A DNA stretch of 64,000 nt from contig DATGIT010000004.1 of NCBI GenBank assembly GCA_035295545.1, positions 90,217 to 154,216 on the forward strand, written 5' to 3'. This DNA comes from Candidatus Binataceae bacterium. Its GTDB lineage: Bacteria > Desulfobacterota > Binatia > Binatales > Binataceae. Positions 30,147 to 55,185 of the stretch are shown here, in pieces. The notes beneath the pieces were generated by a model. The model was not told the DNA's origin. It saw only the letters and a list, made by a program, of their open reading frames with translations, and did not search any database. Made by a program: the position numbers and the translations under genes. Position 1 is the stretch's first letter; each line of letters begins with the position of its first letter.

Positions 30147-30581
30147 CTATTGGCCATTCGTAGTTGAACCGCCTGAGGCCCCGGCGCCCGGATTACTGGG
30201 ATTCGTCGGACCCGACGGGCTGATTGGGTTGCCATTCATGCCGCCCGTCGACGAACCGCCCATTCCGGAACCGCCCGCGCCTGCCCCAGGCATGCCCGCA
30301 CCTGTCGCAGGATTTGCCGGCGGCGTGGTCGCGACGCCGGGATTTGCGGCCGAACCGCCGGTCATGCCCGGCGAGCTGCCGGACGTGCCCGAATCCGTTC
30401 CGCTCGTTCCCGCGCCGGCACCGCCGGGAGCAGTCATCGAGCCGGCGCCCGCGCCGGCACCTCCCGCTCCACCGCCTCCGGCTCCGCCGCCCTGAGCGTA
30501 AAGCACCGGTGCTGTTGCGCCCACGGCGAGAGTCACCGCTGCGCCGATCAGCCAGCTCGATGTTCGTCGGTATTGCTTCAT
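30147..30581 (-). CDS. Secreted Gly/Ala/Ser/Thr/Pro-rich low-complexity protein with repeated GM motifs
   Basis: I placed the start at ATG 30581. Signal peptide MKQYRRTSSWLIGAAVTLAVGATAPVLYAQ, then a roughly 115-aa disordered G-rich region. The opposite-strand Pro-rich ORF lacks any signal or start context. Confidence 0.6.
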   Translation of the reverse strand: MKQYRRTSSWLIGAAVTLAVGATAPVLYAQGGGAGGGGAGGAGAGAGSMTAPGGAGAGTSGTDSGTSGSSPGMTGGSAANPGVATTPPANPATGAGMPGAGAGGSGMGGSSTGGMNGNPISPSGPTNPSNPGAGASGGSTTNGQ

Positions 30582-30677
30582 AAACTCGCACCTCCAACTG
30601 CGTGGCTCCATGTCTTACAATGAGCACACGATCCGGGGCACTGGCATACATGATCTTGACTACCGTGTATGCACAAC

Positions 30678-30833
30678 TCAGATGACTCCGAGCAACGCGA
30701 GAACGATCAGGATTATCAGCAGTCCGCTCAGTCCGCCCGCCGGGTAGTAACCCCATCCTGCGCTATAAGGCCAGGCAGGCAACGAACCGAGAAGTAGCAG
30801 AATAATAATTACGATCAGGACGGTTCTTACCAT
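30678..30833 (-). CDS. DUF3309 family small membrane protein (51 aa)
   Basis: It is below the ORF-track cutoff. My codon-by-codon translation gives MVRTVLIVIIILLLLGSLPAWPYSAGWGYYPAGGLSGLLIILIVLALLGVI. This matches the DUF3309 pattern (LLLLG.LP.WPYS.GWGY.P.GG). AAGGA SD lies 8 nt upstream. Confidence 0.7.
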   Translation of the reverse strand: MVRTVLIVIIILLLLGSLPAWPYSAGWGYYPAGGLSGLLIILIVLALLGVI

Positions 30834-30883: not shown

Positions 30884-30899
30884 TGCATCATCTGTGCCG
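30884..30899 (-). promoter_or_regulatory. Candidate sigma54 (-24/-12) promoter for the DUF3309 gene
   Basis: The minus strand reads CGGCAC-AGATG-ATGCA. GG and GC have the exact N10 spacing, and there are two flanking mismatches to TGGCAC-N5-TTGCA. It lies 50 nt upstream of ATG 30833. Confidence 0.4.
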
Positions 30900-33279: not shown

Positions 33280-34833
33280 CTAAGGTACGACCTCTGCGGC
33301 CGCCGGCCCCAACGAATTGACACTGTGCCAGATGTCCGCGCTCTCCTCCGGCGAGGAGCGCTCGGCTCCGTTGACCGACTCGCGCTCCATTTGGGTTTGA
33401 TCCTCGGTCTTTGCCGAGAGGTAAACCTTCTGCCCCGGATAGATCCGGTTGATGTCAGCTATTTGCGGATTCGCGTCGATAAGCACATTCAGACCATCGC
33501 GCGAGCCCAGATGCCGGATAGCCAGTTTCTCAAGCGTGTCGCCGTACTTCACAACTACAGCAGGCCGTTGCGCGCCCGTGTCCGCGAGGAGGTGCGATAC
33601 ACCCGGTGCGGGCTCATCCTGGTTCCCCTGCTCAACGACGACGCGCGGCCCTGCGGGACTGCGCGAAGGCGACGCCGCCGCCGGGAGCGCTGTTTGCGCA
33701 ACATGAGTCGGCATCTGCGCCGCCGGACTGAAAATTTGCGTGGCAACGAGGCTCCGTTCAGCTCGAGGAAGGCGAGCCCCCTTGGACCGTACCGCGGAGA
33801 CGGGCGGCTCATCAGTCCGCACCCTTGTCGCCGTCGGAATGTCGCGGGCGACCGTGCTCACCGTGGATTCCGCGCTCAAGCTGGCAGTCTTTGCATCAGC
33901 CGTGGGTTTGGAACCGGCTCGAAAGCCGTAGACCAGCGCAAGCAGGACGGCGATCGCGGCGACGCTGAACGGTGCGGGCTTCATCCAATGATGCGCAACC
34001 GTCAGCGCGGCCGCGGCTCCGCCCAGCAGCGATTCATTGTGTTCGTTCACCGCCGCGCGTGCGGTCTTGAGGTCGACCCGCGTGCACCCGGACGAAAACG
34101 CCACCAGCATCGCGTTGTGGCACAGGACGTTGATGCGCCGGGGGATTCCATTGCTGTGGCGCAGCAGGTAGGCGAGCGCATCGGGCTCGAAAATGTCGCG
34201 CGAGCGGCCGCCTTTCGCCCGCAAGCGATAGCCCACATATTCATGCGCTTCGGCAAAGCTCAGTCGCCCAAGCACAGACCGCGCAGCAACGCGTTGGTTG
34301 AACTGGCGCAGCGACGGTCGTTTCAGTCGCACAGCCAGTTCCGGCTGCCCCACCAATACCAACTGCAGATACCTGCCCAATCGCTGGCCGTAGTTGGACA
34401 GCAGGCGAAGCTCCTCGAGCACATCGTCGCTCAGATCCTGGGCCTCATCGACGATGATCGCCAGCCGCTCCTGGAGCCCTCGCCGGCCGAGAAAGCCGAC
34501 CAGTGCCTCGATGCGATCCAGCTTGGTTGTGGCTGGACAGGGTACGCCAAACTGCCCGAGAATTACGCGCAGGATATCCTCGAAGGGCAACTTCGGGTTG
34601 ATTACATAAGCGGCGCTGAGTTGAGAAAAATTGCGGCCGAGTATCGAGCAGATCAAGGTGGTCTTGCCGGTACCGGTCTCGCCAGTGAGGGTGGTGAAGC
34701 CGCTCGGCTCATGCAGCAATCCCCACTCCAACGCGGCAAGACTCTCGCGATGGGCGCGACTCAGGTAGAGGGCTTCAGGGACCGCCGCGGCCTCAAATGG
34801 CGGACCCGAGAGGCGGAAGTGTCGGTAGTACAT
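33280..34833 (-). CDS. ExeA/GspA-like AAA+ ATPase with a TM helix and a C-terminal LysM peptidoglycan-binding domain
   Basis: Walker A GETGTGKTT, Walker B LAIIVDEAQDL, and NGIPRRINVLC. TM helix FSVAAIAVLLALVYGF, an S/T/P/A-rich linker, and LysM VVVKYGDTLEKLAIRHLG...INRIYPGQKVYL. Confidence 0.8.
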   Translation of the reverse strand: MYYRHFRLSGPPFEAAAVPEALYLSRAHRESLAALEWGLLHEPSGFTTLTGETGTGKTTLICSILGRNFSQLSAAYVINPKLPFEDILRVILGQFGVPCPATTKLDRIEALVGFLGRRGLQERLAIIVDEAQDLSDDVLEELRLLSNYGQRLGRYLQLVLVGQPELAVRLKRPSLRQFNQRVAARSVLGRLSFAEAHEYVGYRLRAKGGRSRDIFEPDALAYLLRHSNGIPRRINVLCHNAMLVAFSSGCTRVDLKTARAAVNEHNESLLGGAAAALTVAHHWMKPAPFSVAAIAVLLALVYGFRAGSKPTADAKTASLSAESTVSTVARDIPTATRVRTDEPPVSAVRSKGARLPRAERSLVATQIFSPAAQMPTHVAQTALPAAASPSRSPAGPRVVVEQGNQDEPAPGVSHLLADTGAQRPAVVVKYGDTLEKLAIRHLGSRDGLNVLIDANPQIADINRIYPGQKVYLSAKTEDQTQMERESVNGAERSSPEESADIWHSVNSLGPAAAEVVP

Positions 34834-34878
34834 ATGCCCCCGGGATTTTTCCAGTCAATGAGTTACCGAGCACCATTG

Positions 34879-34894
34879 AGCAAACGCTGTGCCA
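34879..34894 (-). promoter_or_regulatory. Sigma54 (-24/-12) promoter of the ExeA-like gene
   Basis: The minus strand reads TGGCAC-AGCGT-TTGCT, a perfect match to TGGCAC-N5-TTGCW. It lies 46 nt upstream of ATG 34833, in an intergenic region. Confidence 0.65.
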
Positions 34895-35039
34895 CGAAGC
34901 TCCCCTTTGACGCTTGGCCGCGCTACAGAACGAGAACTGCAGTGACAGGGCATCGAAGCGCGAAAACGAAGCCATGGCCGCTACGGTTCCCCGCCGACGC
35001 TAAGGCGAATGTTCGGCTGGATCCATGTAAAACGTACCT

Positions 35040-35077
35040 GTCAATGACCATTCGTCAATGAATTGAATTTTTTTCAA
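35040..35077. promoter_or_regulatory. AT-rich repeat cluster between divergent sigma54 promoters (candidate activator/IHF site)
   Basis: GTCAATGA occurs at 35040-35047 and 35054-35061. There is a palindrome TTGAA-N5-TTCAA at 35063-35077. TCAA-N4-TTG at 35055-35065 matches the core of the IHF consensus WATCAANNNNTTR. Confidence 0.35.
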
Positions 35078-35141
35078 GCGAAGATGCGCGGTTTAGAGGT
35101 ATTGACCACCGATTGCGCCAAGAATAACTGGGCTAAGCTCC

Positions 35142-35157
35142 GGGCACGGCTATTGCT
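35142..35157 (+). promoter_or_regulatory. Candidate sigma54 (-24/-12) promoter; downstream target unclear
   Basis: GGGCAC-GGCTA-TTGCT has a single mismatch (the first T) to the consensus, with exact spacing. The next convincing plus-strand start codon is the kinase gene 600 nt downstream. Confidence 0.5.
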
Positions 35158-35195
35158 CCTCCCGCGAGCATTCTTGAATCGACCGTCGCGCGGAT

Positions 35196-35205
35196 CCCCC
35201 CCCCC
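35196..35205 (+). repeat. Homopolymeric C10 tract
   Basis: Ten consecutive C counted directly, about 30 nt downstream of the predicted start of the 35142 promoter transcript. Confidence 0.9.
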
Positions 35206-35756
35206 AACATGAGACCTCTATCCCGCTTCCAACCTGGACCTCTTCCGCGCGGCGGTCTTCTTCTTGCCTCGTCGTCCGACACAAAACAGGGAACGCACAT
35301 CAGCGGGATGAAATCGAGGTCAGGACCATACTGAGCGCTATCCGATCGACAGCCAGCGGGACCGATAACTCGCCACGGACACGACGCCGCTCATTCAGTG
35401 CGGTCCAAGGTTCGGGATTGCGACGATTCCCAACGGTCGAGGAGTATCCACAGTTGCCGCCCGCATTGCCGGACGAGACCTTGGATTTTTACGCATTCAT
35501 TTTTTGTCGAGGGGGCTTTCTTGAATTGGGCATGACGTTCGAGCAGTTTCTGCTCGTGATCGCGACGGTTGCGCCCGGAAGGCTATGCCCAGGCTGCGAG
35601 CCTTAGCCTTAGTACGAGAGCAATCTCGCGAAAGGACGCTTAATCCAAACCTGTGCTTTGCATCTTATTCCTCATGGCACAACGACGCGCCGGAACACCT
35701 CGAGGAGCATCGGAGCCTGGTTCGGTCCGAACTCGGACGACAGCCCGCCGGAAGGC

Positions 35757-37772
35757 ATGGTCGGAATGAGATCCGATAGCTCCGGCCAATCGCGGCAAGC
35801 GTCCGTCGCCATCCTGCTGGTTGACGGCCACGCACCCAACCTTGCGGCGCTGGAGGCGATACTCGAGCCGCTCGGCCATCGTCTTATAAGGGCCTCTGCC
35901 GGTATGGAAGCGGTCGAGATGCTGAAACACCAGGATGTGGCTGTGGTCCTGATGGACGTGCGAATGCCCGGCCTGGATGGCTTCGAGACCGCCGAGTTCG
36001 TTGAGAGCGCACTGCATGCAAAGGATATCCCGGTGATCTTCCTCACCGAGGCCGATGCCGACAAGGACACGATTCGCGACGCATACGCGCACGGCGCGGC
36101 GGACTTTCTGGTACGTCCGTTCGAGGACGAGGTTCTGCGTTCCAAGGTGGCGTTCTTTGTCGATCTGCATTTGAAGGAGCAGAAGCTCAGAGAACAGGCA
36201 TCGGCGATGCGCGAACAGGCGCGCCAGGCGCTCGAGCGCAGCAGCAATCTCAGGTTCGGCGAACTGATGGATGCAATGCCCCTGTGCGTGGTCGTGACCG
36301 ATCGCGAACGTCGCCCCGTGTATTGGAACGAGAGCAGCCTTTCCTACATCGGAGCGGTGCCGGAAGACGCCAATTCCGCACATGCCCTGCTCAACGCGGT
36401 CCATCCCCAGGATCGCGACGAGCTGATACGGCGCTGGGATTCAGCGATTGCCGAGCGGCACCGATTCGAGCTCAAATTCCGCATTCGCGGGCGCGACGGT
36501 CTGTTCCGCTCGCATCTCGGCCGCGGCATCCCGCAGCGCGACGACCAGGGAGCGGTGACCGGGTGGATTCTGACCGCGACCGACATCGAAGCCGAGAACC
36601 AGGCGCTGCTCAGGGCCGAGATGGCCAACCGCGTCAAGGAAGAATTCCTCGCGACGGTCTCGCACGAATTGCGAAATCCGCTGAATGCCATAGTCGGGTG
36701 GGTTCATCTGTTGCGCACGGGCAATCTCGATGCCGAGCGGTCCCGACATGCACTCCAGATTATCGAGCGCAACGTTCATCTCCAGGTTTCGCTGATCGAT
36801 GAAATTCTCGACCTCTCGCGCATAGCGCGGGGCAAGATCCAGTTGAGTTATCGCGTGGTCGATCTGGTGTCGCTTATCGACGGCGCGCTGGACGTGGTCA
36901 GGCCGGCGGCCGAGGCCAAGGAGCTGCGCGTTGAATGGCGCTGGGACGGCCCGCCGCTGCGCATCAACGGCGATTCTGAGCGTCTCCAGCAAGTAATCTC
37001 GAACCTGCTCTCGAACGCGGTGAAATTCACCCCGCCCGGCGGCCTGATCCGCGTCGGTCTCGAACGCCGCTATCGGCATGCGGTGCTGACCGTCAAGGAT
37101 ACCGGCAAGGGTATCCGCCGCGAATTCCTGCCGTTCATCTTCGAAACCTTCCGCCAGGCCGACAGTACGACCACGCGCGAAGACTACGGCCTCGGGCTCG
37201 GGCTTTCGATCGCGCGCAAACTGGTTGAATTGCACGGCGGACACATTGATGCGCAGAGCGAGGGGGTGGACCGGGGCGCGACGTTCTCGATAGCGCTGCC
37301 GATCGATCCCTTGACCGGCAAGGCGGAGCAGAAACCTGAAGTGCCGCTGGCGGGAGAGCACGCGCTGGAGGGTGTCAGAGTCGTCATAATCGAAGACCAC
37401 AGCGACTCGCGCGACGCCGTGGCCGAACTCCTGAAAGGCCTGGGGGCGGTGGCTTTCACCGCTGACTCGGTGCCCCAGGCGATCCAGCTGATGACCGAGC
37501 GGGAAAGTCCCGACGTCGTTATCAGCGACCTCGCCATGCCCGGCGAAGACGGATTCGCACTCGTACGATGGCTGCACGCGCATCCATCGAAGCGAACCGG
37601 CCGGATCCTGACCATCGCTTTGACCGGCCTCAGCGATCCGCAACATTCAAACCGCGCGCTGCAGGAAGGATTCGACACCTGCATGGTCAAGCCTTTGGAG
37701 GTCGGACGCCTGGTCGAGTATATTTCGGCTTCGATCGCGCGCAGGGGAGAACGAATGATGCGGGAGTCGTAA
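35757..37772 (+). CDS. Hybrid sensor histidine kinase (receiver - PAS - HisKA - HATPase_c - receiver)
   Basis: N-terminal receiver ILLVDGHAPN...VLMDVRMPGLDG...LVRPF. PAS region around PVYWNES..FRSHLGRG. H-box FLATVSHELRNPLNAIVGW and G-boxes KDTGKGI, GLGLGLSIARK. C-terminal receiver VVIIEDHSD..ISDLAMPGEDG..VKP. The start is at 35757 or 35766. Confidence 0.85.
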   Translation: MVGMRSDSSGQSRQASVAILLVDGHAPNLAALEAILEPLGHRLIRASAGMEAVEMLKHQDVAVVLMDVRMPGLDGFETAEFVESALHAKDIPVIFLTEADADKDTIRDAYAHGAADFLVRPFEDEVLRSKVAFFVDLHLKEQKLREQASAMREQARQALERSSNLRFGELMDAMPLCVVVTDRERRPVYWNESSLSYIGAVPEDANSAHALLNAVHPQDRDELIRRWDSAIAERHRFELKFRIRGRDGLFRSHLGRGIPQRDDQGAVTGWILTATDIEAENQALLRAEMANRVKEEFLATVSHELRNPLNAIVGWVHLLRTGNLDAERSRHALQIIERNVHLQVSLIDEILDLSRIARGKIQLSYRVVDLVSLIDGALDVVRPAAEAKELRVEWRWDGPPLRINGDSERLQQVISNLLSNAVKFTPPGGLIRVGLERRYRHAVLTVKDTGKGIRREFLPFIFETFRQADSTTTREDYGLGLGLSIARKLVELHGGHIDAQSEGVDRGATFSIALPIDPLTGKAEQKPEVPLAGEHALEGVRVVIIEDHSDSRDAVAELLKGLGAVAFTADSVPQAIQLMTERESPDVVISDLAMPGEDGFALVRWLHAHPSKRTGRILTIALTGLSDPQHSNRALQEGFDTCMVKPLEVGRLVEYISASIARRGERMMRES

Positions 37773-38076: not shown

Positions 38077-39471
38077 ATGAAGGCTGTGACCAGGGTACTT
38101 ATCGTCGAGGACAACGCCGACGCGCGCGAGGCGTGGTCCACTCTGCTCACGTCGTGGGGCTACCGGGTCGAGGGCGCGGGCGATGGAGAGCGTGCGCTGC
38201 AACTGGTGGAAAGCTTCGACCCGCAGATTCTGCTGCTCGACCTGCGCCTGCCCAGAAAAGACGGTCTGGCAGTGCTGCGCGATATGCGCGCGAATGGACG
38301 GCAGATTCCGACCATTGTCATATCGGGCGAGGGCGAAATCGAAGATGCGGTGCAGTCAATCAAGCTTGGCGCTTACGACTACCTGCGCAAGCCCGTCGAC
38401 CCTAATCACCTTGAGGTACTACTCAACAACCTGCGCACGCATCTGAGCGTCAGCAAGGAAAATCAGCTTCTGCGACGGCGGCTGATGGACGCCGGCGAGT
38501 TGGGGCAATTGATCGGACAGTCGCTGGCGATGCGCCGCGTGATGGCCGCCATCGATCAGGTCGCGCCGAGCAGCGCCTCGGTTGTGATCGTGGGTGAAAG
38601 CGGCACCGGCAAGGAACTGATCGCGCGCACCATCCATGAACTGTCGCCGCGCGCTGCGGGACCCTACATCGCGATAAACTGCGCCGCGCTGCCCGAGACG
38701 CTGATGGAAAGCGAGCTGTTCGGTCACGAGCGCGGCGCTTTCACCGGCGCCGATCGGCGCCGCGAAGGCTGTTTCGAACTCGGCGCGGGCGGCACTCTGC
38801 TGCTCGACGAGATCGGCGAGATGAAGCCGGAGCTGCAGGCAAAGCTCTTGCGCGTGCTCGAGGAGCGCAAAGTGCGCCGCCTCGGCGGCTCAACCGAAAT
38901 CTCGGTGGACGTGCGCGTGCTGGCCGCGACCAACCGCAATCTCGAAATGCAATTGCGCGAAGGAAAGTTTCGCGAAGACCTCTACTATCGGTTGAACGTG
39001 TTCACGATCCAGCTACCCACTTTGCGCGAACGCTCCGACGACATACCGATTCTGATCGAACATTTCCTTCGCCAGCTGGCCCCTGCCACCGGGAAGTCCA
39101 TTATCGGGATCGAGGCCGACTGCCTCGAGCTGCTCCGCGCGCAGCGCTGGCCCGGCAACGTGCGTCAGCTTCGCAATGTCATCGAGCGCGCGCTCATCGT
39201 CACGCCCGGACCGATGATCTCCAAGGCCGACCTGCCGGAGGAAATCACGCTGGAGGCAGCTTCAACTCAGCCACCGCCCCCGCTTCAGGCGCCTGCCTCC
39301 GGTGAAGGCTCGACCGCCGGCCTGAACGTGCACGTCGGAATGTCGCTGAACGAGGTCAAGCGCGAGCTTCTTCTGCATACGCTGAAGTTCACTGGCGGCA
39401 ACAAGGCAAAAGCCGCCGAAATCCTCGGCGTCTCGCTGAAGACACTGTACAACCACCTTAAGGGCGAGTAG
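38077..39471 (+). CDS. Sigma54-dependent response regulator (NtrC/AtoC type: receiver - AAA+ - Fis HTH)
   Basis: Receiver VLIVEDNAD..LLLDLRLPRKDG..LRKP. Walker A GESGTGKE, the GAFTGA loop (ERGAFTGA), and WPGNVRQLRN. C-terminal HTH NKAKAAEILGVSLKTLYN. The ORF is open from 37801. ATG 38077 fits the domain start, and ATG 37936 (AGGTG SD) is an alternative. Confidence 0.9.
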   Translation: MKAVTRVLIVEDNADAREAWSTLLTSWGYRVEGAGDGERALQLVESFDPQILLLDLRLPRKDGLAVLRDMRANGRQIPTIVISGEGEIEDAVQSIKLGAYDYLRKPVDPNHLEVLLNNLRTHLSVSKENQLLRRRLMDAGELGQLIGQSLAMRRVMAAIDQVAPSSASVVIVGESGTGKELIARTIHELSPRAAGPYIAINCAALPETLMESELFGHERGAFTGADRRREGCFELGAGGTLLLDEIGEMKPELQAKLLRVLEERKVRRLGGSTEISVDVRVLAATNRNLEMQLREGKFREDLYYRLNVFTIQLPTLRERSDDIPILIEHFLRQLAPATGKSIIGIEADCLELLRAQRWPGNVRQLRNVIERALIVTPGPMISKADLPEEITLEAASTQPPPPLQAPASGEGSTAGLNVHVGMSLNEVKRELLLHTLKFTGGNKAKAAEILGVSLKTLYNHLKGE

Positions 39472-39631: not shown

Positions 39632-39647
39632 TGGCACGGGATTTTCA
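39632..39647 (+). promoter_or_regulatory. Candidate sigma54 (-24/-12) promoter for the Thr-rich lipoprotein gene
   Basis: TGGCAC-GGGAT-TTTCA has a perfect -24 element, and the -12 reads TC instead of GC (one mismatch). It lies 45 nt upstream of ATG 39692. Confidence 0.4.
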
Positions 39648-39691: not shown

Positions 39692-39952
39692 ATGAACTAC
39701 CATGGATCCCTTTTTGTCTGCCTGGCCGCTGCATTGGCTATAGGACTTTGTTCTGCGTGCGAATCAGCCGGCACCAGAGAAACTACGACCACGACTACTG
39801 AATACAGTTCTCCGGAGTCTCCGACGGTGACAACGCCGCCTCCAGCCGCTTATCCAAATACTGGTTCCTCAGAAACGACCACGACCACCACCACCAGTCC
39901 TAGCGGCGTGGTACAGAAGCGCTCGACCACGACAACCTACCCTTCGCAATGA
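39692..39952 (+). CDS. Small exported Thr/Ser/Pro-rich (mucin-like) putative lipoprotein
   Basis: CAGGAG SD upstream. Signal peptide MNYHGSLFVCLAAALAIGLCSAC, then TTTTTT and TTTTTTT runs. 86 aa, no family recognised. Confidence 0.55.
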   Translation: MNYHGSLFVCLAAALAIGLCSACESAGTRETTTTTTEYSSPESPTVTTPPPAAYPNTGSSETTTTTTTSPSGVVQKRSTTTTYPSQ

Positions 39953-40303: not shown

Positions 40304-40492
40304 CTAGTGCTGCTCATCCAGCCACCTGCGGATTTCCTCCTTGCGATCGCCCGTTCGTTCCTGGATGCGGCCCGCAAGTTTGTCCATATCTCCTTCGACC
40401 TCGAGCAGGTCGTCATCCGTCACCCTCGCCCATCTGCGCTTGATCTCGCCCTTCAATTGATTCCATTTGCCTTTGGTCTGATCCTTATTCAT
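40304..40492 (-). CDS. CsbD family general stress protein
   Basis: 62 aa. KGKWNQLKGEIKRRWARVTDDDLLEVEGDMDKLAGRIQERTG is the CsbD signature. GAGGAAG SD upstream. Confidence 0.85.
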   Translation of the reverse strand: MNKDQTKGKWNQLKGEIKRRWARVTDDDLLEVEGDMDKLAGRIQERTGDRKEEIRRWLDEQH

Positions 40493-40722
40493 CGCTTCTT
40501 CCTCTGCTAATCGCTAAATTGCAAGAGCAAACCAAAGGGGAGCAACAACCATGCCCGCGACCAGGACTCATCAACCAGGAGTCTTTGGCGGTCTGATGCG
40601 AAACGCGGGCAGCTTTTTTGCCGGAGCTTTCGAAAGAGCAGGGGAATCTTCCCCGGCGGAGATACGCGCACATTCCGGCTATGGCCGCTGATTTGAAATC
40701 GCAGCCAAAGTAAAAAACTCGA

Positions 40723-42270
40723 TCATCGATTGAGCCGCAAGCGAATGAGTTGTTTGAGCAATTCGATATCCACCGGTTTGACCAAATGTCGGTCGAATCC
40801 GGCTTCGCTGGCTCTGACCGCGTCTTCAGGACGTCCAAATCCGGTTGCGGCGATGAGGAACGGCCGCTCGCCACGATGATTTCGCAGGATTTCCCGCGCG
40901 AGCTGAAAACCTGAACCGTCAGGCAAATCGAGATCGAGGATAAAGATATCGAACGCGTTCTCGGAAGTCCTGGCGATCGCATCCGCTACGTCTTTGGCGC
41001 CGACGACCTGGACCGGCTCGTCCGCCAAAGCCAGCAGCATCATTTCGCGCTGATCGGGATTGTCTTCGACAAGCAGTACACATGGCATGACTGCATCTTT
41101 TGAAGGTTCCGCTTCCTCGGCCAGGCTTGGCAGGCGCAGTGTCAGCTCGGTGCCCTTGTCCAGTCCGTCGCTGGCGGCCTCGATGGTTCCGCCATGCAAT
41201 TCAGTCAGCTTGCGCGCCAGCCACAGGCCCACCCCAAGACCAGTGCGATTGCCCGCCTCGCCCTGGGCAAACAGCTGGAACAGCCTGTCGAGCATCGCCC
41301 GGTCCAGACCTGCGCCCGTATCGCGCACGCGCACCACTAACTGGCCGGTTTCGCGCTCGGCCGAGATCTGGATTGTGCCGCCGGACGAAGTGAACTTGAG
41401 CGCATTCGCCAGCAGATTGGAAATGATTTGCTCGATCCTGAAGCCGTCGCCGGAAACGCGCAGCGGATAGTCGGGGCGCAGGTACTTGAAACCGATTCCT
41501 TTTGCCTCGAATTCCGGCAGGTAAGGCTCGACCGCGTTCTGGATAGCCTTGCGCAAGTCCAAAGGCTTTCGTTCGAGTTCAATCTTGCCTCGCGAGATAC
41601 GATTGACGTCAAGCAGGTCATCAATCAGTCGGATTTGCGATGCGGTTTGCCGCTCGACCACGTCGAGGGCCCGCTGGCGTTGCACCTCGTCGATGCCTTC
41701 CTTATGCAGGATGTACAGGGCGGTGCGGATCGCCGCCAGGGGATTGCGCAACTCGTGCGAGAGCACAGCCAGGAACCGATCCTTCTGCTCGTTGGCTGCG
41801 CGCAATTCGTCGCGCGCCGCGTCGCGTTCGAGGTTCGCTTCTCGGACAAATTGCTCGATCGAACTGAACTCGCTGCGATCAACGATATGCATCAGCAATT
41901 CGCGAGCGCCATACAAGGTGTCGGACGGCTGAGCCGCGGCCAGCTCTTCGAGCGTTTGGCGGAGCAGTTGGCGAAAGATTGCAAACTCCCACGCAACCTG
42001 GGCCGCACGGTAGCCGCGCACCCTGCGCGCGTGACCGTGCCGGGCGCCTCGCTGCTCGATCTCTTCCTCGGACACCCGCATGCCTCCCAAAGCGTTGATC
42101 ATCTCCTGAAAAAGCCCGGGAAGATGATCTTCAAGTTCCTCGTCGCTGAACCACAGACGTGACTCGGGAAGGCTGTTGTCGGCTCGCACCTGCTCGCGCC
42201 AGCGAGCGAACAGCTCGCCGCGTCGGGCCTCGAAGTGCGCGCGCACTTCCTCGAGCTTATCTATCGTCAT
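40723..42270 (-). CDS. Hybrid sensor histidine kinase (cytoplasmic N-terminal sensor domain, HisKA, HATPase_c, receiver)
   Basis: ATG 42270 gives MTIDKLEEV. The N-terminal WREQVR...LEDHLPGLFQEMINAL is tentatively RsbRD-N-like. H-box FLAVLSHELRNPLAAI and G-boxes RDTGAGL, GVGLWLARK. Receiver VLLVEDNPD..ILDLDLPDGSG..VKP. Confidence 0.8.
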   Translation of the reverse strand: MTIDKLEEVRAHFEARRGELFARWREQVRADNSLPESRLWFSDEELEDHLPGLFQEMINALGGMRVSEEEIEQRGARHGHARRVRGYRAAQVAWEFAIFRQLLRQTLEELAAAQPSDTLYGARELLMHIVDRSEFSSIEQFVREANLERDAARDELRAANEQKDRFLAVLSHELRNPLAAIRTALYILHKEGIDEVQRQRALDVVERQTASQIRLIDDLLDVNRISRGKIELERKPLDLRKAIQNAVEPYLPEFEAKGIGFKYLRPDYPLRVSGDGFRIEQIISNLLANALKFTSSGGTIQISAERETGQLVVRVRDTGAGLDRAMLDRLFQLFAQGEAGNRTGLGVGLWLARKLTELHGGTIEAASDGLDKGTELTLRLPSLAEEAEPSKDAVMPCVLLVEDNPDQREMMLLALADEPVQVVGAKDVADAIARTSENAFDIFILDLDLPDGSGFQLAREILRNHRGERPFLIAATGFGRPEDAVRASEAGFDRHLVKPVDIELLKQLIRLRLNR

Positions 42271-44152
42271 CTGCCGTTCCTTTGCCGGTCGCGGGCAGAT
42301 ACAGCGCGGCAGTGAAGGATGCGAGTTCAACTGAGGCGCCGGTCTTCTCGATTGTCGCGGGCGGCATAACCGAGGGCGTCGGCCCGAAGGTTTCTTCTCC
42401 TGTGTAAAGCGCAAGTGCCAGGCGTCCGCTCTGTTCGCCCACCGTCAAGGTCAGCGATTTTTCGCTGAGGTTGCACAGCAACAGAGCATCCAGACCCGAA
42501 AGATCGCCGCGACGGACGATCATCCATCGCGGCTCCTCGCCGAAACTCACCTGGGTAAGGTCTTTGCGGGAGTTCGCAAGGCAAGGCGTCGACTTGCGTA
42601 ATTCGATCAGCCTGCGATTGAACGCCAGCAGCTCGCGATGCGGCGTCCGGGCTGGCTCCGCCCAATCGATGCGCGAACCGACGAAAGTCTGCGCCGCCTG
42701 GGGATCTGGAAAAGCACGGTCCGTGAAGAATGGTTCATACTCGCGCCGACGTCCCTCCGAAACTGCCTCTGCCAGCGCCCGCTCGGTGAAGCTGGTGAAG
42801 TAATTGAATGGCGTCGAGGCGCCGAATTCCTCGCCCATGAAAAGCATCGGCAGGGCGGGCGCGCACCATAGGATCGCCGCCGCCAGCTTCTGCTGCGCGA
42901 GCGAGGCCAGTTGCGACAGGCGCCGTCCCGCGTCGGCATTGGCAATCTGATCGTGATTCTGGTTGAACACGACGAACTGGCGGCCTGAATTGCCCGTCGA
43001 CGGCGCACCGTGACGGCGGCCGCGATATTCCGAGCGGCCGCCGTCATAGACGAAGCCTTGGGTCAGCGCCTTGGCGAGATCGCCGATCCGACCGAAATCC
43101 ATAAAGTAGCCATTGTGATCGCCGGTCAACAGGGTGTGCAGCGCATGATGAAAATCGTCGTGCCATTGCGCGTCGAGCCCGTGTCCGCCAATCGCCGGCG
43201 GATTGATGACGCGTGGATCGTTGAGATCGCTTTCGGCTATCAACCACGCCTCGCGTCCGAGCAGACGCGCCTGCCGGTGAAAAGCGTCTGCCATCTCGCG
43301 CAGCACATGAACCGCTCCGAAGTCGAATATTTCATGGATCGCATCGAGCCGCAGCGCATCGACGTGATACTCAGTCAGCCAGTACAGCGCATTCTCAATG
43401 AAGAAGCGTCTGACCGGGTCGCTCCCCGCGCCGTCGAAATTGATAGCCTGTCCCCACGCACCACGATAGCGATCGGTGAAATATGGGCCGTATTCCGCGA
43501 GGTAGTTACCCTCGGGGCCAAGATGGTTGTAAACGACGTCAAGTATGACCGCGAGGCCCGCGCGGTGGCACGCATCCACCATTCGTTTGAAGCCCGCGGG
43601 TCCGCCATAGCATGTATGGGGCGCGTACAATGCCACGCCGTCATAGCCCCAGTTGCGGCCGCCGGCGAACGACGCGACGGGCATGATCTCGACCGCGGTA
43701 ATACCCAGTTCGCGAAGATAGGGAATGCGCTCGACGATTCCTGCGAACGTTCCTTCGGAACTGAAAGTGCCGGTGTGGATCTCGTAAATGATCAGATCCT
43801 GCAGCGGCAGGCCGCGCCAATCGCCGTCGGTCCAGCCGAAAGCCAACGGATCGACCACCTGGGAAGCTTCATGCACGCCGCGCGGCTGGCAACGCGACAC
43901 CGGATCGGGCCGTCTGCGGCCGTCCTCGAATTGGTACATATATTCCGCGCCCGGGTCGAGGCCGCGCGCAAACGCCGTGAAGCACCCATCCGCGCCGCGC
44001 TCCATCCGCAGGATCGCCGCTTCGGGACTGGAAATGCAGACTGACAGTTCCTTCGCGCGCGGCGCCCATACCCGGAAGAGCACGCCCTGCGAGGTGAGAC
44101 TCGCGCCGAATTCGAGACGCTGTACAGGATCGCCAGGAGCGCTCTGCCCCAT
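42257..44152 (-). CDS. treZ: Malto-oligosyltrehalose trehalohydrolase (GH13)
   Basis: ATG 44152 follows GGAGAGGA. FRVWAP, IYEIHTGTF, AVEIMPV..GRNWGYDG, VILDVVYNHLGPEGN, DALRLDA and WHDDFHH are TreZ/GH13 motifs. The upstream 144 codons of the ORF are Arg-rich and overlap treY. Confidence 0.85.
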   Translation of the reverse strand: MGQSAPGDPVQRLEFGASLTSQGVLFRVWAPRAKELSVCISSPEAAILRMERGADGCFTAFARGLDPGAEYMYQFEDGRRRPDPVSRCQPRGVHEASQVVDPLAFGWTDGDWRGLPLQDLIIYEIHTGTFSSEGTFAGIVERIPYLRELGITAVEIMPVASFAGGRNWGYDGVALYAPHTCYGGPAGFKRMVDACHRAGLAVILDVVYNHLGPEGNYLAEYGPYFTDRYRGAWGQAINFDGAGSDPVRRFFIENALYWLTEYHVDALRLDAIHEIFDFGAVHVLREMADAFHRQARLLGREAWLIAESDLNDPRVINPPAIGGHGLDAQWHDDFHHALHTLLTGDHNGYFMDFGRIGDLAKALTQGFVYDGGRSEYRGRRHGAPSTGNSGRQFVVFNQNHDQIANADAGRRLSQLASLAQQKLAAAILWCAPALPMLFMGEEFGASTPFNYFTSFTERALAEAVSEGRRREYEPFFTDRAFPDPQAAQTFVGSRIDWAEPARTPHRELLAFNRRLIELRKSTPCLANSRKDLTQVSFGEEPRWMIVRRGDLSGLDALLLCNLSEKSLTLTVGEQSGRLALALYTGEETFGPTPSVMPPATIEKTGASVELASFTAALYLPATGKGTADDDR

Positions 44153-44175
44153 TGGTCTCCGGTCCTCTCCGCCTT

Positions 44176-47112
44176 TCACTCGTGCTCGGGCACGAGCATC
44201 GCGACCGGCATGAGCGCGAACACCTCGCTCATCGAAAGCCGCGCTGCATCGCACTCGCGTCGCGTTTCGATCGTCCGGCCGCTGAACAGATCGCGGAAGC
44301 GGCGGGAATCCGATCCTTCGGGCAGTTCGAGCCACGTTCCGGACCATGCCGTCGCCGGCGGAAATGAGTCGAGATGGCTTTGCAGGCCGAAGAAAAGCCG
44401 GCCAGTCGCAACTATGACGATCCGGTTCTCCGATCGTCGGGCAAAACCAATCACGTTGCGCGCCCGCTCTCCGGTCGCGTCGAGCGGAAGATACTCGCCC
44501 ACCTCGAACAGGGTGCGATGAGCGCGCCGGTATCGCAGCGCGCGATGCGTGACGTACATTTTGATGCGTCCGTCTTCGGCGCAATCGAGGAGATCTTCAA
44601 TCAGCCGCGCTCGATCGCCGTCCGCCTGCCGGATCAGCCGATCGAGCATCGCCGCACGCAGCGCGAAATCCACCGGTCTTCGATTATCCGGGTCGACAAG
44701 GTTGTAATCCCATAATTCGCTGCCTTGATAAAAGTCGGGGACGCCCGGCGCAGCGATCTTTATCAGCGTCTGCGACAGCGAATTGAGCATCGCGGCAATC
44801 GCGATGGGCCGGCGGAATTCAACGAAGTCGGCCAGAAAGCGATTATGCGCATCGCGCGCCAGCGCGTTCCGCACAAAATTGTCGAGCGCCTGGTCGTGAG
44901 CCGCGTTGGGGCTGATCCAGCTCGTGCGCAGCTTGGCCTCCTTCGCCGCCTTGAACATGTAGTCGCGGACGCGCTCGACGAAATCGGCATGCTGCCCGTT
45001 GCTCATGCCGCACATGGGCCACGCGCCCACCAGCGTCTGGTAGAAGAAGTATTCCTCGTTGCCGTCCGGAGCGCAGCTGCCGTTCCATTGCGAGATCAGC
45101 GCAGCGTTGAGGCTGTGCCATCGCCGCACCGCCCGTTCCCACTTCTGCGGAATCTCGGACAGAACGTTGATGCGCGCGCGCACGTCCTCTCCGCGCTTGG
45201 TGTCGTGGGTCGAGGTGGCCGACAAGCCGTGCGGCCAGTCGCGCAGCCGGCGCGTGTTGCGCGCATGAAACGCATCGATCTCGATCCCGAACGACATCGG
45301 GTCGCCGCCAACTTCGTTGAGCGAGGCCAGCGGGTGGACGCGATAGATCGCGGTGTCCTCGAAGCCCTTCGCCATCACCGGGCTGGTGAGCTGCTGAAAG
45401 CGCAGGCTGAAATCGAGCCGCTCGCCGAGCGCGGCATCGTCAATCCCCTCGGGATGGTCGAGCAGGAGCACCGAGGCGAGAAAGTCGAACGGCGACTCGC
45501 TGAGCGCGGCGTTGCGTCGTTTGGCGGCGTTGATCGCGGCTAGCACCCAGCGGCGATCCTCGCCGCTGACCGCGGCATCGCTGCTCACGTACGATCGATA
45601 TACGGGAAAGCACGCGATGACCTCGGCGAGCACGCGGCCAAGGCTGTTCAGCGTGAAATCGCGCGACCATCGATGCTGCTCCGAGATGCGGTCGAGCCTG
45701 CGCGCCAGCACGTTTTGCTCGCCGGACATCAGCGCGCGCAGCACCAGCTTCTTGCAATCGTAAACCACGTCGGCAAAGTCGCGTCGCTGACGGCCGAAAC
45801 GCTGGTAAAATTCCATCAGCGCCTCGCCGCCCGCACGGTCCACGAACAACGCGTTGAGGTCGTTGAGAAATTCGTATCCGGTGGTGCCGTGCACCGACCA
45901 ATCCGTCCGCAACGGCTCGTCGCGGCCGAGAATCTTTTCCACCACGATATAAAAAGGCCGGACCACGGCAGGAACGCGGCCCGCCCCGCCCGCTTCGGCG
46001 CGCGGCGCGTCGTCGATTTCCTGCGCGGGACGTGCCAGCAGACATTCCTGTTGCAGGGTCCGCAGGTATTGGACCGGATCGCGCAGCCCATCGACGTGGT
46101 CGATACGCAGTCCGCCGATCAACCCCTCGCGCACCAGATCCAGGATGAGTTCGTGCGCCGCGCGAAAAACCTCTGGCTGCTCGACGCGAATCGCGGCAAG
46201 GTCATTGACGTCAAAGAAACGTCGATAGTTGATTTCATCCGCGGCGACATGCCAGAAGCTCAGCCGATAGGCCTGATCGTCCAGCAGCTGCTCGAGGCGA
46301 TCGAAGCTGCGCGGCTCACCCCGCCTGCCGTTGAGTTCGCCGATCGAGGTCTCCACCGCGCTCCGCACCTCGGCGCTCGATTCGACCAGCGCCGACAGCC
46401 GCTCGCGCGCGATGAGTTTTTCGCGCTGGCGCTCGCGCACCTTCTCGGCGTCCGTTTCCGTCCGCAGCGGAAGATGATTGAGCGCCGTGATGATGCTGGC
46501 CAACTCCAGCGCTTCGCGGCTCGTTTCGCCAAGCCGCGCGGTCAATCGGGTCAACGCCGGCTCAAGGATCGCGGTGCTGGAGCGCGGGGCGAGAGGAAAA
46601 ATCTGAGTGCCATACCGCACCTGGAAAGAGCCGTCGCGGTAAGCGACCACGATGCGACCGTTCTCGAGCGCCTGCCCGAACTGCTCGCCGAGAACCGGCA
46701 GAAGGACCTTATTTGCGAGGTCCGCTTTGGGCGGTCTCCAGTCGATATCGAAAAAGGCGGCAAACGGCGAGCTGGGCCCGTTTTCGAGCACGTCGAACCA
46801 CCACTTGTTCGACGGGTCGGCGATGCACATGTGGTTTACGACGATATCGACGATAGTGCCGAGACCGTGTTCCCGCGCAGCGTGCGCGAAAGTGCGAAAT
46901 CCCTCGCGCCCGCCGATCTCCGGATTGAGCGACTGGAAGTCGGTAACGTCGTAACCGTGATTGCTGCCCGCGCGCGCCTGCGTCAGCGGCGAGACGTAAC
47001 AATCGCTGATACCGAGTCGGCCCAGATATCCGACGATCGCCGCGGCGTCATGGAGCGTGAAATCGCGGTTAAGCTGGAGCCGGTAGGTGGCCGAAGGGAT
47101 GCGCGTGTTCAC
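44176..47112 (-). CDS. treY: Malto-oligosyltrehalose synthase (GH13)
   Basis: [47 protein letters not shown].., [16 protein letters not shown] chose GTG 47112 so that the product begins [13 protein letters not shown], as TreY proteins do. GTG 47223 is the alternative. Confidence 0.85.
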
Positions 47113-47197
47113 GGGCGGGCCCGGACCTGCGCACGATGATGCGCAAGCGCGCGATTGCGTCGGTTCCGGGACGTGTAGATGAAGTGCACCGCGCGGT

Positions 47198-47428
47198 TCA
47201 TCCGCGATTGCCGGACGCCACACCCGCGGCCACCAGGCCTCCGCCGACGACTATCGCGACGATGCTCGCAGCGGTCGGGATCACGTGCAGCACATTTTCG
47301 CGATGCTGAACAGTTACGCTGCCAATCTTCGCGACCTGCTGAGTATGGCTGGTCCAGAAGGCCGGAAACACGAGGCTGGCTACACCCAGGATAGCCAGCA
47401 AAACGCCAATCGTGACAAGCGCCTTCAT
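47198..47428 (-). CDS. Small two-TM membrane protein (hypothetical)
   Basis: 76 aa. [24 protein letters not shown] and [18 protein letters not shown] are hydrophobic helices. It lies directly upstream of treY on the same strand. Confidence 0.55.
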
Positions 47429-52015: not shown

Positions 52016-54487
52016 TCACTGGCCGCCGTTGGCCGCCGTCTCGAGATGCCAGATGTCGCGGGCATATTCGGTCACCGTGCGGTCGCTCGAAAACCTGCCG
52101 ATACGCGCGACGTTGAGAATGGATTTCCGGATCCAGGTCGGAGGGTCGACGAATTCGTCCGCTATCCGTTGCTGTGTATCGACGTAAGACCCGAAGTCCG
52201 CCACCACGAAATAGTCGTCCTGCTCCAGCAACGTATCCGCTATCCAGTTGAAAAGCCCCGGTTCGCGCGGGCAGAAAAGATCCGAACTGAGCGCATCGAG
52301 CACGCGCTTGAGGCGGGGCTGGCCGTGATAACATTCGCGCGGACTGTAGGACTGTTCGCGCCGCAAGCGGGCAATGGCCGGCGCGGTCAGGCCGAATATG
52401 AATATGTTCTCCTCGCCCACTTCCTCGCCGATTTCGATATTGGCGCCGTCCAGCGTGCCGATGGTCAGCGCGCCATTCATCGCAAATTTCATGTTTCCGG
52501 TCCCCGACGCCTCGGTGCCCGCGGTTGAGATCTGCTCGGAAACGTCGGCCGCGGGAATGATCTTCTGCGCCAGCGAAACCCGATAATCGGGGACGAACAC
52601 GACCTTGAGCAGGCCGCGCGTGCGCGCGTCGTTGTTGATCACAGCGCCGACGTTGTTGATCAGCTTGACGATCGCCTTGGCCGCGCGATAACCGGGAGCC
52701 GCCTTGCCGGCGAAAAGATAGGTGCGCGGCGCCGGCGGCTCGACGCCGTCCTCTACCAGGTGCAGGTACTGATGCACGATGCCGAGGACCATCAGCAGCT
52801 GCCGCTTGTACTCGTGAATACGCTTGGCCTGGACGTCGAGAATTGAGGCGGGATCGATATCGATCGCCGCGATGCGGTGCACGATGGTCGCGAGCCGCTC
52901 CTTGTTGGCGCGCTTCACCGCGGCGAAGCGCCGCTGAAATTCCTCGTCCTCGGCGAACCGCTCGAGTTCGCGCGTGCGTTCGAGAGCCACCCGCCACGCA
53001 TCACCGATCGTGTCGTCGAGCAGTCGCGCCAGCCCCGGATTCGCCATCAGCAGCCAGCGCCGCTGGGTGACGCCGTTGGTCTTGTTGCTGAAGCATTGCG
53101 GGCGCAGCGAGTACAACTCGGGCACCAGCTCGGTCTTGACCAGTTCCGAGTGCAGCTTGGAGACTCCGTTCACCGAATGGCTGCCGACAATCGCCAGATG
53201 CGCCATCCGCACCTGCGGCTCAGCGCCCTCTTCGACGATGGCGATCTTGCGGCTTTCGCCGCTGCCGTGGCCCGAGATGGAAACCGCCTCGGCCAGAAAG
53301 CGGCGATCGATTTCGTAGATGATTTCCAGATGACGCGGCACCAGACGGCGCATCAACTCGACCGGCCAGCGCTCGAGCGCTTCGGGCATCAAAGTGTGGT
53401 TGGTGTACGCCACCGTCGCGCGGGTTATTTCCCACGCCTTGTCCCAGGGCAGTTCGTGCTGATCCACGAACATCCGCATCAGCTCGGCGATGGCGAGCGC
53501 GGGATGCGTGTCGTTGAGCTGAATCGCGACCTTGAGCGGGAAATCATGGATATGCTCGCCGCGTGAGAAGAAGCGCTTGCTGATATCGCGGATCGCGCAG
53601 GCCACGAAGAAATACTCCTGCAGCAGCCGCAGCTCGCGGCCCGAGCGCGCCTGATCCGACGGGTAGAGCACTTTCGAGATGGTCTCGGAGAGCAGTTTCT
53701 GCTCGACCGCCTTGACGTAATCTCCCGAGTTGAAAATATGGATGTCGAATTCGTCCGAAGCGCCCGCGGCGAACAGCCGCACGTGGTTCACGGTCTGGCT
53801 GTTGAATCCGGTGATCGGCAGGTCGGAAGGAATGCCGACGATGACGCGGTAGTCCGTCCATCGCGGCCGGTACTCGCCATAGCGATCGACTCCCGGCTCG
53901 ATACGGCCATAGATCGGGATGACGCAGGCTTCTTCGTGCCGCGCGACCAGCCACGGTGACGTTTCGCGCCGCCAGCTGTCGGGCCGCTCGACCTGGTAGC
54001 CGTCAACGATCTGCTGGCGGAACAGTCCGAACTCGTAGTTGATGCCGTAGGCATAACCCGGCATCCCGAGCGTCGCCAGCGAATCCAGGAAGCAAGCCGC
54101 CAATCTGCCCAGGCCGCCGTTGCCCAGCCCGGCATCCATCTCTTCCTCGAAAAGCTGCCGCAGCTCGATCCCGTTTTGCGCCAGGTACTCGCGGCACGCG
54201 TCGTAGAGCCCCAGATTGAAGAGATTGTTTTCGAGCGAGCGCCCGATCAGGTATTCAAGCGAAAGATAGTAGAGCTTTTTCGCCCCCAGCCGCTCGAAAC
54301 GTGCCTGTGTCGCGACCATCTTATCGACCAGCATGTCTCGCACGGCGAGTGCGATGACCTGGTACCAGTCGTGCCGCGAAAACTGCGCGCGCCGCTTGGC
54401 CACGCTGAAGCGCATGTGATGCGCGATCAAATCCGCGAATTCAGCGAATGTGCCGCGGTCGTCAGTCGAAAGAATCGTCGTAGCCAT
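52016..54487 (-). CDS. glgP: Glycogen/maltodextrin phosphorylase (GT35)
   Basis: ATG 54487 (an upstream TTG at 54544 is possible). LGNGGLGRLAACFLDS and the pyridoxal-phosphate site EASGTGNMKFAMNGALTIGTLDGANIEI. Confidence 0.9.
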   Translation of the reverse strand: MATTILSTDDRGTFAEFADLIAHHMRFSVAKRRAQFSRHDWYQVIALAVRDMLVDKMVATQARFERLGAKKLYYLSLEYLIGRSLENNLFNLGLYDACREYLAQNGIELRQLFEEEMDAGLGNGGLGRLAACFLDSLATLGMPGYAYGINYEFGLFRQQIVDGYQVERPDSWRRETSPWLVARHEEACVIPIYGRIEPGVDRYGEYRPRWTDYRVIVGIPSDLPITGFNSQTVNHVRLFAAGASDEFDIHIFNSGDYVKAVEQKLLSETISKVLYPSDQARSGRELRLLQEYFFVACAIRDISKRFFSRGEHIHDFPLKVAIQLNDTHPALAIAELMRMFVDQHELPWDKAWEITRATVAYTNHTLMPEALERWPVELMRRLVPRHLEIIYEIDRRFLAEAVSISGHGSGESRKIAIVEEGAEPQVRMAHLAIVGSHSVNGVSKLHSELVKTELVPELYSLRPQCFSNKTNGVTQRRWLLMANPGLARLLDDTIGDAWRVALERTRELERFAEDEEFQRRFAAVKRANKERLATIVHRIAAIDIDPASILDVQAKRIHEYKRQLLMVLGIVHQYLHLVEDGVEPPAPRTYLFAGKAAPGYRAAKAIVKLINNVGAVINNDARTRGLLKVVFVPDYRVSLAQKIIPAADVSEQISTAGTEASGTGNMKFAMNGALTIGTLDGANIEIGEEVGEENIFIFGLTAPAIARLRREQSYSPRECYHGQPRLKRVLDALSSDLFCPREPGLFNWIADTLLEQDDYFVVADFGSYVDTQQRIADEFVDPPTWIRKSILNVARIGRFSSDRTVTEYARDIWHLETAANGGQ

Positions 54488-55185
54488 GTCCTGTGCGCTG
54501 AGCCAGGCCCCGCCGCCTTGCGGGCGAAGAGCAGGCTTCAGCAAACGCTATGCCCTCAACTTGCCCGTGATCAATAATTTCAGCCGCGGCGGACGATTGA
54601 TTTTCCACACACGTGAAACGAAATCGATCGTGCTGCTCAGTTGGCGCGCAGCCTCTGCTATCGCAATAGGCACCGCTCTCTGCTTCGGCGGCGTGCGATC
54701 CACAATATCAGGAGCGGGACCGCGGATTGAGGTCAGCGCCTATCACTCGATCAATGCCCGGCGGTCAATGTCTCGCCGGATACTCATCTCCGGCATACTC
54801 ATCGCCCGCGCGATGGACAGGACGCCCCGCACGCTTGAGTTCCGCAAGCTGTTCGCAGGTCATCGCGTACGAAGCACTGGAAATCGCCGATGGATGGCTT
54901 CTTCTCCGTGGATCAGGCCGGTTCACATACGGGACATTCCCTCGCACGCAGCCGTCCGAATGAGTCTCGCCGACAATGCGCGCGCGTGGTTCGATCAACC
55001 GGTCTTTTGCCCGCGCGCCGAATCGTGATAAGCGTCGGGGAGGAGCGTCAGGGGTCCGACTTGCACGCGGCGGGCGCAGGCAAAGCGCGGGTGGACGCGG
55101 CGAGATCGGCGGGACGGAAAATGTCATCCTCCCGGGGCGGACCTTCCTGCGCGCGCAGCGTCAACGGCGAGGTGAGGTGAACCCC

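Follow-up and report, generated by a model that had tools for sequence, protein, structure and literature searches.

We analyzed a 64-kb stretch of DNA from a Candidatus Binataceae bacterium (assembly GCA_035295545.1, contig DATGIT010000004.1, positions 90,217 to 154,216 of the forward strand; 63.5% GC), referred to here as the window, whose numbering is used throughout. In this window, an ExeA-like gene and a set of genes encoding a hybrid histidine kinase and an NtrC-family activator are oriented divergently, and the region between them carries two opposed -24/-12 promoter motifs, P1 and P2, on either side of a conserved AT-rich module (Table 1). Judging from the motifs, their conservation, orientation and spacing, and the content and linkage of the genes, we consider it likely that this region controls a small sigma-54 module with positive autoregulation, similar to zraP/zraSR. 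A sequence-only reading of the window had proposed divergent sigma-54 promoters around an AT-rich spacer resembling an integration host factor (IHF) site, one promoter being a perfect consensus match; comparison with related loci now strongly supports the divergent promoters, on evidence much stronger than that single match.

The nearest genomic relatives of the window are metagenome-assembled genomes (MAGs) labelled Candidatus Binataceae or "delta proteobacterium." A protein search with the ExeA-like protein recovered orthologs with 98, 88, and 83% identity and many others with 57 to 65% (overall span, 57 to 98%). The set used to compare P1 consisted of the window, L001 to L003, L036 to L038, L039/L040, L041, L042 to L045, L058, L100, L101, and L102/L103, i.e., 15 distinct loci, all from Binataceae-type MAGs or soil metagenomes. 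The closest of these, L036 from assembly GCA_037024435.1, is a 98% identical relative of the window. L058 is an orthologous fragment from a metagenome scan; the other matches of that scan were mostly paralogs and were set aside, leaving L058 as its only ortholog.

P1 agrees with all of TGGCAC-N5-TTGCT and with 11 of the 12 positions scored in our consensus test, its GG and GC dinucleotides being exactly 10 nt apart. It is separated by 45 nt from the ATG (34833) of the ExeA-like open reading frame (ORF), and transcription is predicted to start near 34868, which would give a 5' untranslated region (UTR) of 35 nt. No other exact TGGCAC-N5-TTGC occurs in the window. With 0.17 such matches expected per window, the earlier estimate of "well under once" was correct. 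However, because 17 of 100 shuffled sequences contained at least one exact match and one-mismatch matches were not enriched (7 versus 4.7 expected), the single perfect match is by itself only weakly unusual, that is, suggestive rather than decisive. Conservation adds considerably to this: GGCAY-N5-TTGCT was kept 28 to 47 nt before the ATG in 15/15 ortholog loci, and among the aligned columns only those of GGCAC and TTGC were invariant, the flanks being unalignable between lineages.

P2 scored 11/12 in the same test, with a G replacing the T at -26 and, again, GG and GC 10 nt apart. Each of the 12 loci with a kinase or an activator gene on this flank has kept it, and what it points to is invariably a sensor-kinase gene or a kinase remnant, the type of kinase varying among lineages. 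Its form is GGGCA(C/T)GGCTATTGCT in the lineage of the window (L036 to L038), CGGCATAGCTATTGCT in L002, L041, L042 to L045, L058, and L101, and CGGCATAACTGTTGCT in L001, and it ends in TTGCC in L003. In L041 (5598 to 5633, minus strand), the P2 sequence CGGCATAGCTATTGCT is tandemly duplicated, the two copies being 20 bp apart. Between P2 and the kinase gene, and more widely in 34700 to 35900, we found neither sigma-70-like promoters nor intrinsic terminators.

Relaxed forms of the motif were enriched in the window. GGCAY-N5-TTGCW occurred 4 times (0.54 expected) and GGCAY-N5-WTGCW 6 times (1.10 expected), and none of 100 shuffles reached either count. All six GGCAY-N5-WTGCW matches, P1 and P2 included, are intergenic and directed at a gene, and for four of the six the distance from the end of the site to a start codon is 40 to 50 nt, from which UTRs of about 35 to 45 nt would follow. 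Only one comparably scoring match was found within coding DNA of the window: TGGGACGCGGGTTGCT at 49687 matches at 11/12 positions, lies inside an aldo-keto reductase gene, and has a broken GGCA core, and we treated it as a chance occurrence. Both -24/-12 sites named in the sequence-only reading were recovered, and the intergenic position and correct orientation that it gave for P1 hold for all six core matches. Among the features that it missed is a third site, P3, located between the stop codon of the kinase gene (37772) and the start of the activator gene (38077). P3 was kept as TGGCA(C/T)(C/T)(A/G)TT(A/G)(A/G)TGC(T/A) in L036, L037, L002, L003, L042 to L045, and L101. The activator gene thus appears, from these motifs, to be under sigma-54 control twice over, from P2 and from P3.

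Alignment of the spacers between P2 and P1 revealed a single conserved block, corresponding to 35026 to 35080 of the window and containing two elements, A and B. Element A is a palindrome of the family YTGRA-N5-TTCAR, with the form TTGAA-N5-TTCAA in the lineage of the window, TTGGA-N5-TTCAA in others, and CTGAA-N5-TTCAG in L041 and L102, where both arms have changed and symmetry is retained. Element B, which the earlier reading had not reported, is the T-rich sequence (GGTAGG)TTTTACA and was conserved in all module-bearing lineages; TTTTACA has only 3 copies in the 64 kb, one of which lies 60 nt upstream of P3. A and B are 37 to 38 nt apart (42 to 44 nt in L039 and L102). The distance from the center of element A to the GG of P2 was 72 to 74 nt in every locus with an intact module, which places A and B at about -97 and -135 from the predicted P2 start. 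From element B to the GG of P1, the distance ranged from 133 to 215 nt (86 nt in L100); this variation is as expected if the module acts as an enhancer. The A/B module also persists upstream of P1 in L039 and L102, both of which are devoid of P2 and of an adjacent activator gene. As a general marker of a regulon the module was rejected, the palindrome being confined to this spacer and a TTTTACA-like element alone recurring, upstream of P3.

The activator encoded at 38077 to 39471 contains Pfam domains REC, Sigma54_activat (4e-71), and HTH_8 together with an intact GAFTGA motif, as had been anticipated. It scored below every NCBIfam equivalog cutoff (AtoC, 452 versus 714; PEP_resp_reg, 408 versus 502.6; ZraR, 383.8 versus 760). 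In L002 and L003, its orthologs (77 to 86% identity) adjoin the ExeA homolog, and the synteny of effector and kinase-activator genes recurs in L002, L003, L036, and L037. Linkage between the ExeA-like gene and a GAFTGA activator holds in several lineages despite differing kinase types. The start of the kinase gene at 35757 agrees with the gene call in L036. On the other side, the ExeA-like protein matched AAA_22 (2.4e-21) and LysM (6.7e-6) in Pfam, and its best NCBIfam match, TIGR03015, scored 211.6 bits, below the cutoff of 324.5. Because the next gene converges on it, the ExeA-like gene is monocistronic in the window. Its neighbors are small stress-type genes (CsbD and DUF3309, and BON in relatives).

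Table 1. Features of the divergent sigma-54-type locus and related sites (coordinates of the 64-kb window; loci other than the window are named)
Feature	Position	Strand	Description
P1	34879..34894	minus	-24/-12 sigma-54-type promoter of the ExeA-like gene; TGGCACAGCGTTTGCT, read 34894 to 34879
ExeA-like gene	33280..34833	minus	517 aa; N-terminal AAA_22 ATPase, predicted transmembrane segment, C-terminal LysM (Pfam)
Element A	35063..35077		Palindrome TTGAA-N5-TTCAA (family YTGRA-N5-TTCAR); conserved
Element B	35026..35038	minus	(GGTAGG)TTTTACA; window form AGGTACGTTTTACA; conserved in module-bearing lineages
P2	35142..35157	plus	Divergent -24/-12 promoter, GGGCACGGCTATTGCT; predicted start at about 35168
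Hairpin behind P2	35181..35257	plus	Conserved; 14-bp GC-rich arms GACCGTCGCGCGGA and TCCGCGCGGCGGTC, then UCUUCUUCUU; z = -2.97
Small coding sequence	35418..35606	plus	At most 62 aa, between hairpin and kinase gene; start codon uncertain
Hybrid histidine kinase gene	35757..37772	plus	671 aa; REC-PAS-HisKA-HATPase-REC, no membrane segment (Pfam)
Kinase behind P2, L002			Shorter form
Kinase behind P2, L001			1591 aa
Kinase behind P2, L041			1197 aa, HAMP-GAF
Kinase behind P2, L042 to L045 and L101			90-aa REC remnant
P3	37845..37860	plus	-24/-12 site between kinase stop and activator start; TGGCACTGTTGATGCT
Activator gene	38077..39471	plus	NtrC-family enhancer-binding protein; REC, AAA+ with intact GAFTGA, Fis-type HTH (HTH_8) (Pfam)
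Core match	34879	minus	ExeA-like gene downstream
Core match	35143	plus	P2, toward kinase
Core match	37846	plus	Activator downstream
Core match	40541-40556	minus	GGGCATGGTTGTTGCT; ends 48 nt before ATG of CsbD-family gene 40304-40492 (minus)
Core match	30884-30899	minus	CGGCACAGATGATGCA; ends 50 nt before 51-aa DUF3309 membrane-protein gene 30678-30833 (minus)
Core match	54540-54555	minus	GGGCATAGCGTTTGCT; ends 52 nt before ATG of glycogen phosphorylase gene 52016-54487 (minus)

On the basis of this arrangement, we propose the following mechanism. The sensor kinase would phosphorylate the NtrC-type activator, which would then bind the A/B module, the presumed enhancer, and oligomerize. From there, it would remodel the sigma-54 holoenzyme at P2 from a fixed distance, element A being centered near -97, and would reach P1 by DNA looping across a distance that varies between lineages. 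From P1, the monocistronic ExeA-like gene would be transcribed, encoding an AAA ATPase that is anchored in the membrane and binds peptidoglycan through its LysM domain. The P2 transcript would comprise a leader with the hairpin, the small ORF, the hybrid kinase gene and, probably, the activator gene. With the help of P3, P2 would thus raise the levels of kinase and activator, resulting in positive feedback.

This divergent design is already known from zraP/zraSR and similar systems. In Escherichia coli and Salmonella, ZraR controls the divergent sigma-54 promoters of zraSR (also named hydHG) and zraP (PMC4987338). As in that system, a kinase-activator operon here diverges from the gene for an envelope-related effector, each with a -24/-12 promoter, and we propose autoregulation by the operon's own NtrC-family activator. 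However, the effector is an ExeA-like protein with AAA_22 and LysM domains rather than ZraP, and the activator, at 383.8 bits against a cutoff of 760, is no ZraR equivalog and is not assigned as a ZraR ortholog. The locus further differs in having a soluble hybrid PAS kinase, an extra promoter (P3) before the activator gene, and a conserved leader hairpin, and its host is an uncultured member of the Binatia. A second comparable case is orp1/orp2 of Desulfovibrio vulgaris, where divergent sigma-54 promoters act with OrpR and IHF and two functional IHF sites were demonstrated (PMC3897727). Both loci have two divergent sigma-54-type promoters and one intergenic region with regulatory sites between them; the genes are unrelated, though, and the IHF-like match seen here is not conserved. 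The effector itself resembles ExeA/GspA of type II secretion and the XrtA/PEP-CTERM-associated ATPase family TIGR03015 in its N-terminal AAA_22-type ATPase, membrane segment, and C-terminal peptidoglycan-binding domain. The peptidoglycan-binding domain of Aeromonas ExeA is PG_binding_1, whereas that of the protein described here is LysM. With a score under the TIGR03015 cutoff and no ExeB, secretin, or exosortase gene among the genes called within about 6 kb in L036 and L037, the protein was not assigned to either group.

Several observations weigh against the proposed module. P2 is off consensus at -26, with G or C in place of T, and its predicted start lies about 590 nt from the ATG of the kinase gene, a distance that had not been noted before. 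L039, L100, and L102 keep P1 with no activator gene close by; therefore, the cognate activator is not necessarily encoded next to it. L002 keeps P1 and P2 and has no A/B module, so the module is not indispensable. The palindrome of element A occurs only once, in the spacer between P1 and P2, and upstream of P3 we observed a TTTTACA-like element and no palindrome. For many enhancer-binding proteins, the binding region contains two or three clear dyads. Finally, sigma-54 itself can only be presumed from the GAFTGA activator: a search for RpoN-box and IHF/HU motifs in the window and the 103 fetched loci brought up no rpoN or IHF/HU gene, a result that speaks only for these sequences.

The alternative that survives best concerns the hairpin behind P2, another feature absent from the earlier reading. 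The hairpin begins 13 nt after the predicted P2 start (arms at 35181 to 35194 and 35244 to 35257) and encloses a C/U-rich loop of about 49 nt; it may be a leader or a small RNA. Rather than a kinase-activator message, P2 could mainly yield a discrete small regulatory RNA of about 90 to 100 nt, corresponding to the hairpin, the kinase and activator then being made mostly by read-through and from P3. We regard this as possible but doubtful. It would account for the presence of the hairpin exactly once per locus, and always behind P2, in the window and nine relatives (10 of the 12 P2 loci), where the surroundings have diverged. The arms are nearly invariant, and the three substitutions seen (C to U at two stem positions and A to G in the inner helix of L041) are all one-sided and keep G.U pairs on the P2-sense strand, while the opposite strand would have A.C mismatches. 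In L038, the stem is followed by the U-tract UUUUCUUUUUGUUU, the clearest case, and in the window by the weaker UCUUCUUCUU. Furthermore, in L042 (4776 to 5048, minus strand), as well as in L043 to L045 and L101, decay of the kinase gene has left no more than a 90-aa receiver remnant, and P2, the hairpin, P3, and the activator gene are intact.

There are also precedents for sigma-54-dependent small RNAs adjoining activator genes. The qrr-luxO pair is one of them. GlmY, which depends on GlrR and IHF (PMC3045617), and Pxr beside nla19 (PMC5568312) are others, and the likeness to glmY-glrK-glrR and pxr-nla19 extends to a -24/-12 promoter, a conserved structured RNA a few nucleotides further on, and a two-component activator locus alongside. 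In contrast to these, the hairpin has no terminator conserved across lineages (a U-tract follows the stem in the window lineage only and is lacking in L041, L042, and L001) and no covariation: no compensatory double change was seen in the aligned loci, which leaves the structure unproven by covariation, and a near-invariant stem could equally be a protein-binding site. A covariance model found no hairpin in L002, L003, L039, L100, or L102, the first two of which have P2, and no extra copies in any locus. Rfam gave no match, either for the whole window at gathering thresholds or for 34800 to 35800 at E ≤ 5, and the RNA may be a mere 5' leader of the kinase operon. We rejected pairing of the loop with the Shine-Dalgarno region of the ExeA-like 5' UTR, duplex energies being no better than background in 8/8 lineages. 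Similarly, a leader peptide starting at the conserved loop sequence ATGA(A/G)A was rejected, since it would run through the 3' arm in different frames in different lineages and its ATG lacks a Shine-Dalgarno sequence upstream. Within the loop (35196 to 35205, plus strand), the window has a run of 10 C and L036 has 6 C, which may reflect homopolymer variation or an assembly artifact.

At most tentatively, the hairpin could represent an as yet undescribed family of small RNAs that depend on sigma-54 in the Binatia. It would be made from P2 under an enhancer shared with the ExeA-like gene and kept despite kinase decay, and it would act either in trans, by way of its C/U-rich loop, or in cis, by attenuation that gates read-through into the kinase and activator genes. 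The hairpin may be the only new element of the locus, unproven as it is.

A second, less probable alternative to the zraP/zraSR-like module is that the AT-rich spacer is mainly a bend made by IHF or another nucleoid protein and that the activator in fact binds at other sites, such as the two GACCGCCGCGCGGA arms of the hairpin, each of which contains the 8-bp palindrome CCGCGCGG. We consider it unlikely. The stretch from 35040 to 35077, singled out as AT-rich in the sequence-only reading, is 71% AT and shares the highest AT content of any 38-mer in the window; it contains the octamer GTCAATGA at 35040 and 35054, 14 bp apart, as well as a TCAA-N4-TTG match to the IHF core at 35055 to 35066; IHF sites between divergent sigma-54 promoters are also known from the Desulfovibrio orp genes (PMC3897727). 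But neither the octamer repeats nor the IHF-core match is conserved beyond the lineage of the window itself. The octamer has 5 copies in the window (1.46 expected), including a third one in this region that had been overlooked, at 34854 to 34861 (plus strand), inside the predicted ExeA-like 5' UTR between P1 and the ATG, which is lost in L038. No IHF site of the form WATCAANNNNTTR was found between the putative enhancer and the promoter, only the TCAA-N4-TTG core inside the module. The conserved element is symmetric, whereas the IHF consensus is asymmetric, and the arms are missing in L002, L003, L039, and L102, all of which keep P1; in addition, the wobble changes favor a constraint on the arms at the RNA level. 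The TTGAA-N5-TTCAA palindrome pointed out earlier is, in contrast to the repeats, conserved. From the enhancer/IHF/promoter geometry proposed at first, the divergent promoters flanking a conserved AT-rich module stand, and the octamer and IHF details are not supported. The AT-rich stretch is probably regulatory, and its symmetric palindrome and T-rich element fit a dimeric activator site better than they fit IHF.

Least probable is that P1 is real and P2 a nonproductive or chance -24/-12-like sequence, perhaps within a protein-binding region, with the operon transcribed from elsewhere: the missing T at -26, the long distance to the kinase gene, and the lack of enrichment of one-mismatch consensus matches would agree with it, but GG-N10-GC with TTGCT is shared by 12 loci from several lineages, its distance from element A being fixed, P2 is tandemly duplicated in L041, and no other promoter is detectable between P2 and the kinase gene, which makes this very improbable.

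Returning to the proposed P2 operon, the small ORF between the hairpin and the kinase gene (35418 to 35606) is probably a real gene, because a codon-by-codon comparison with L037 and L038 showed nearly all of the differences to be synonymous. It has no Pfam or NCBIfam match, and its putative TTG start codon is CTG in L037. We considered whether it is related to the 90-aa ORF of L042 and found the two to be unrelated, the latter being the REC remnant of the kinase.

Outside the locus, the other three core matches of the window precede a CsbD-family gene, a DUF3309 gene, and a glycogen phosphorylase gene (Pfam Phosphorylase, 1015 bits). The first has a counterpart in a different lineage, L102 carrying AGGCACGCTTGTTGCT before a CsbD gene, and sites related to the second are CGGCACATATGATGCA in L038 and TGGCACGCATGATGCA in L001. 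Just downstream of the DUF3309 gene, a 154-aa ORF (30147 to 30611, minus strand) encodes a signal-peptide-like N terminus followed by Gly/Ala/Ser-rich low complexity and has no family match. Two large alpha-amylase-family ORFs, which may be TreY/TreZ-like, lie at 42257 to 47223, near the glycogen phosphorylase gene. At 39632 to 39646 (plus strand), TGGCACGGGATTTTC is found 45 nt before an 86-aa ORF for a threonine-rich putative lipoprotein (39692 to 39952, plus strand); this site has a good -24 element and no GC at -12. A fourth conserved -24/-12 site, TGGCACAAGAGGTGCA, is present in L001 (8040), L003 (8152), L041 (8126), and L042 (8182), always on the minus strand, and absent from the lineage of the window. 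It lies about 2.1 kb downstream of the start of the ExeA homolog, on the opposite strand, and faces a 54-aa ORF in L042, where genes were called.

The site before the glycogen phosphorylase gene gives a hint that storage and stress functions may be under sigma-54 control. In relatives, the motif precedes CsbD, DUF6496, and PLD-like genes. Taken together, such hints point to stress, dormancy, or envelope functions as possible targets of sigma-54 in this lineage.

Binatia are a widespread, uncultured, and little-studied soil lineage, and in the literature we found no published work on sigma-54 control in this group. The findings are therefore useful for annotation and comparison more than for any conceptual advance: the locus provides a phylogenetically footprinted example of promoters, a candidate enhancer, and an apparently autoregulated two-component activator, and sites of the P1 and P2 type can seed a promoter model specific to this lineage.

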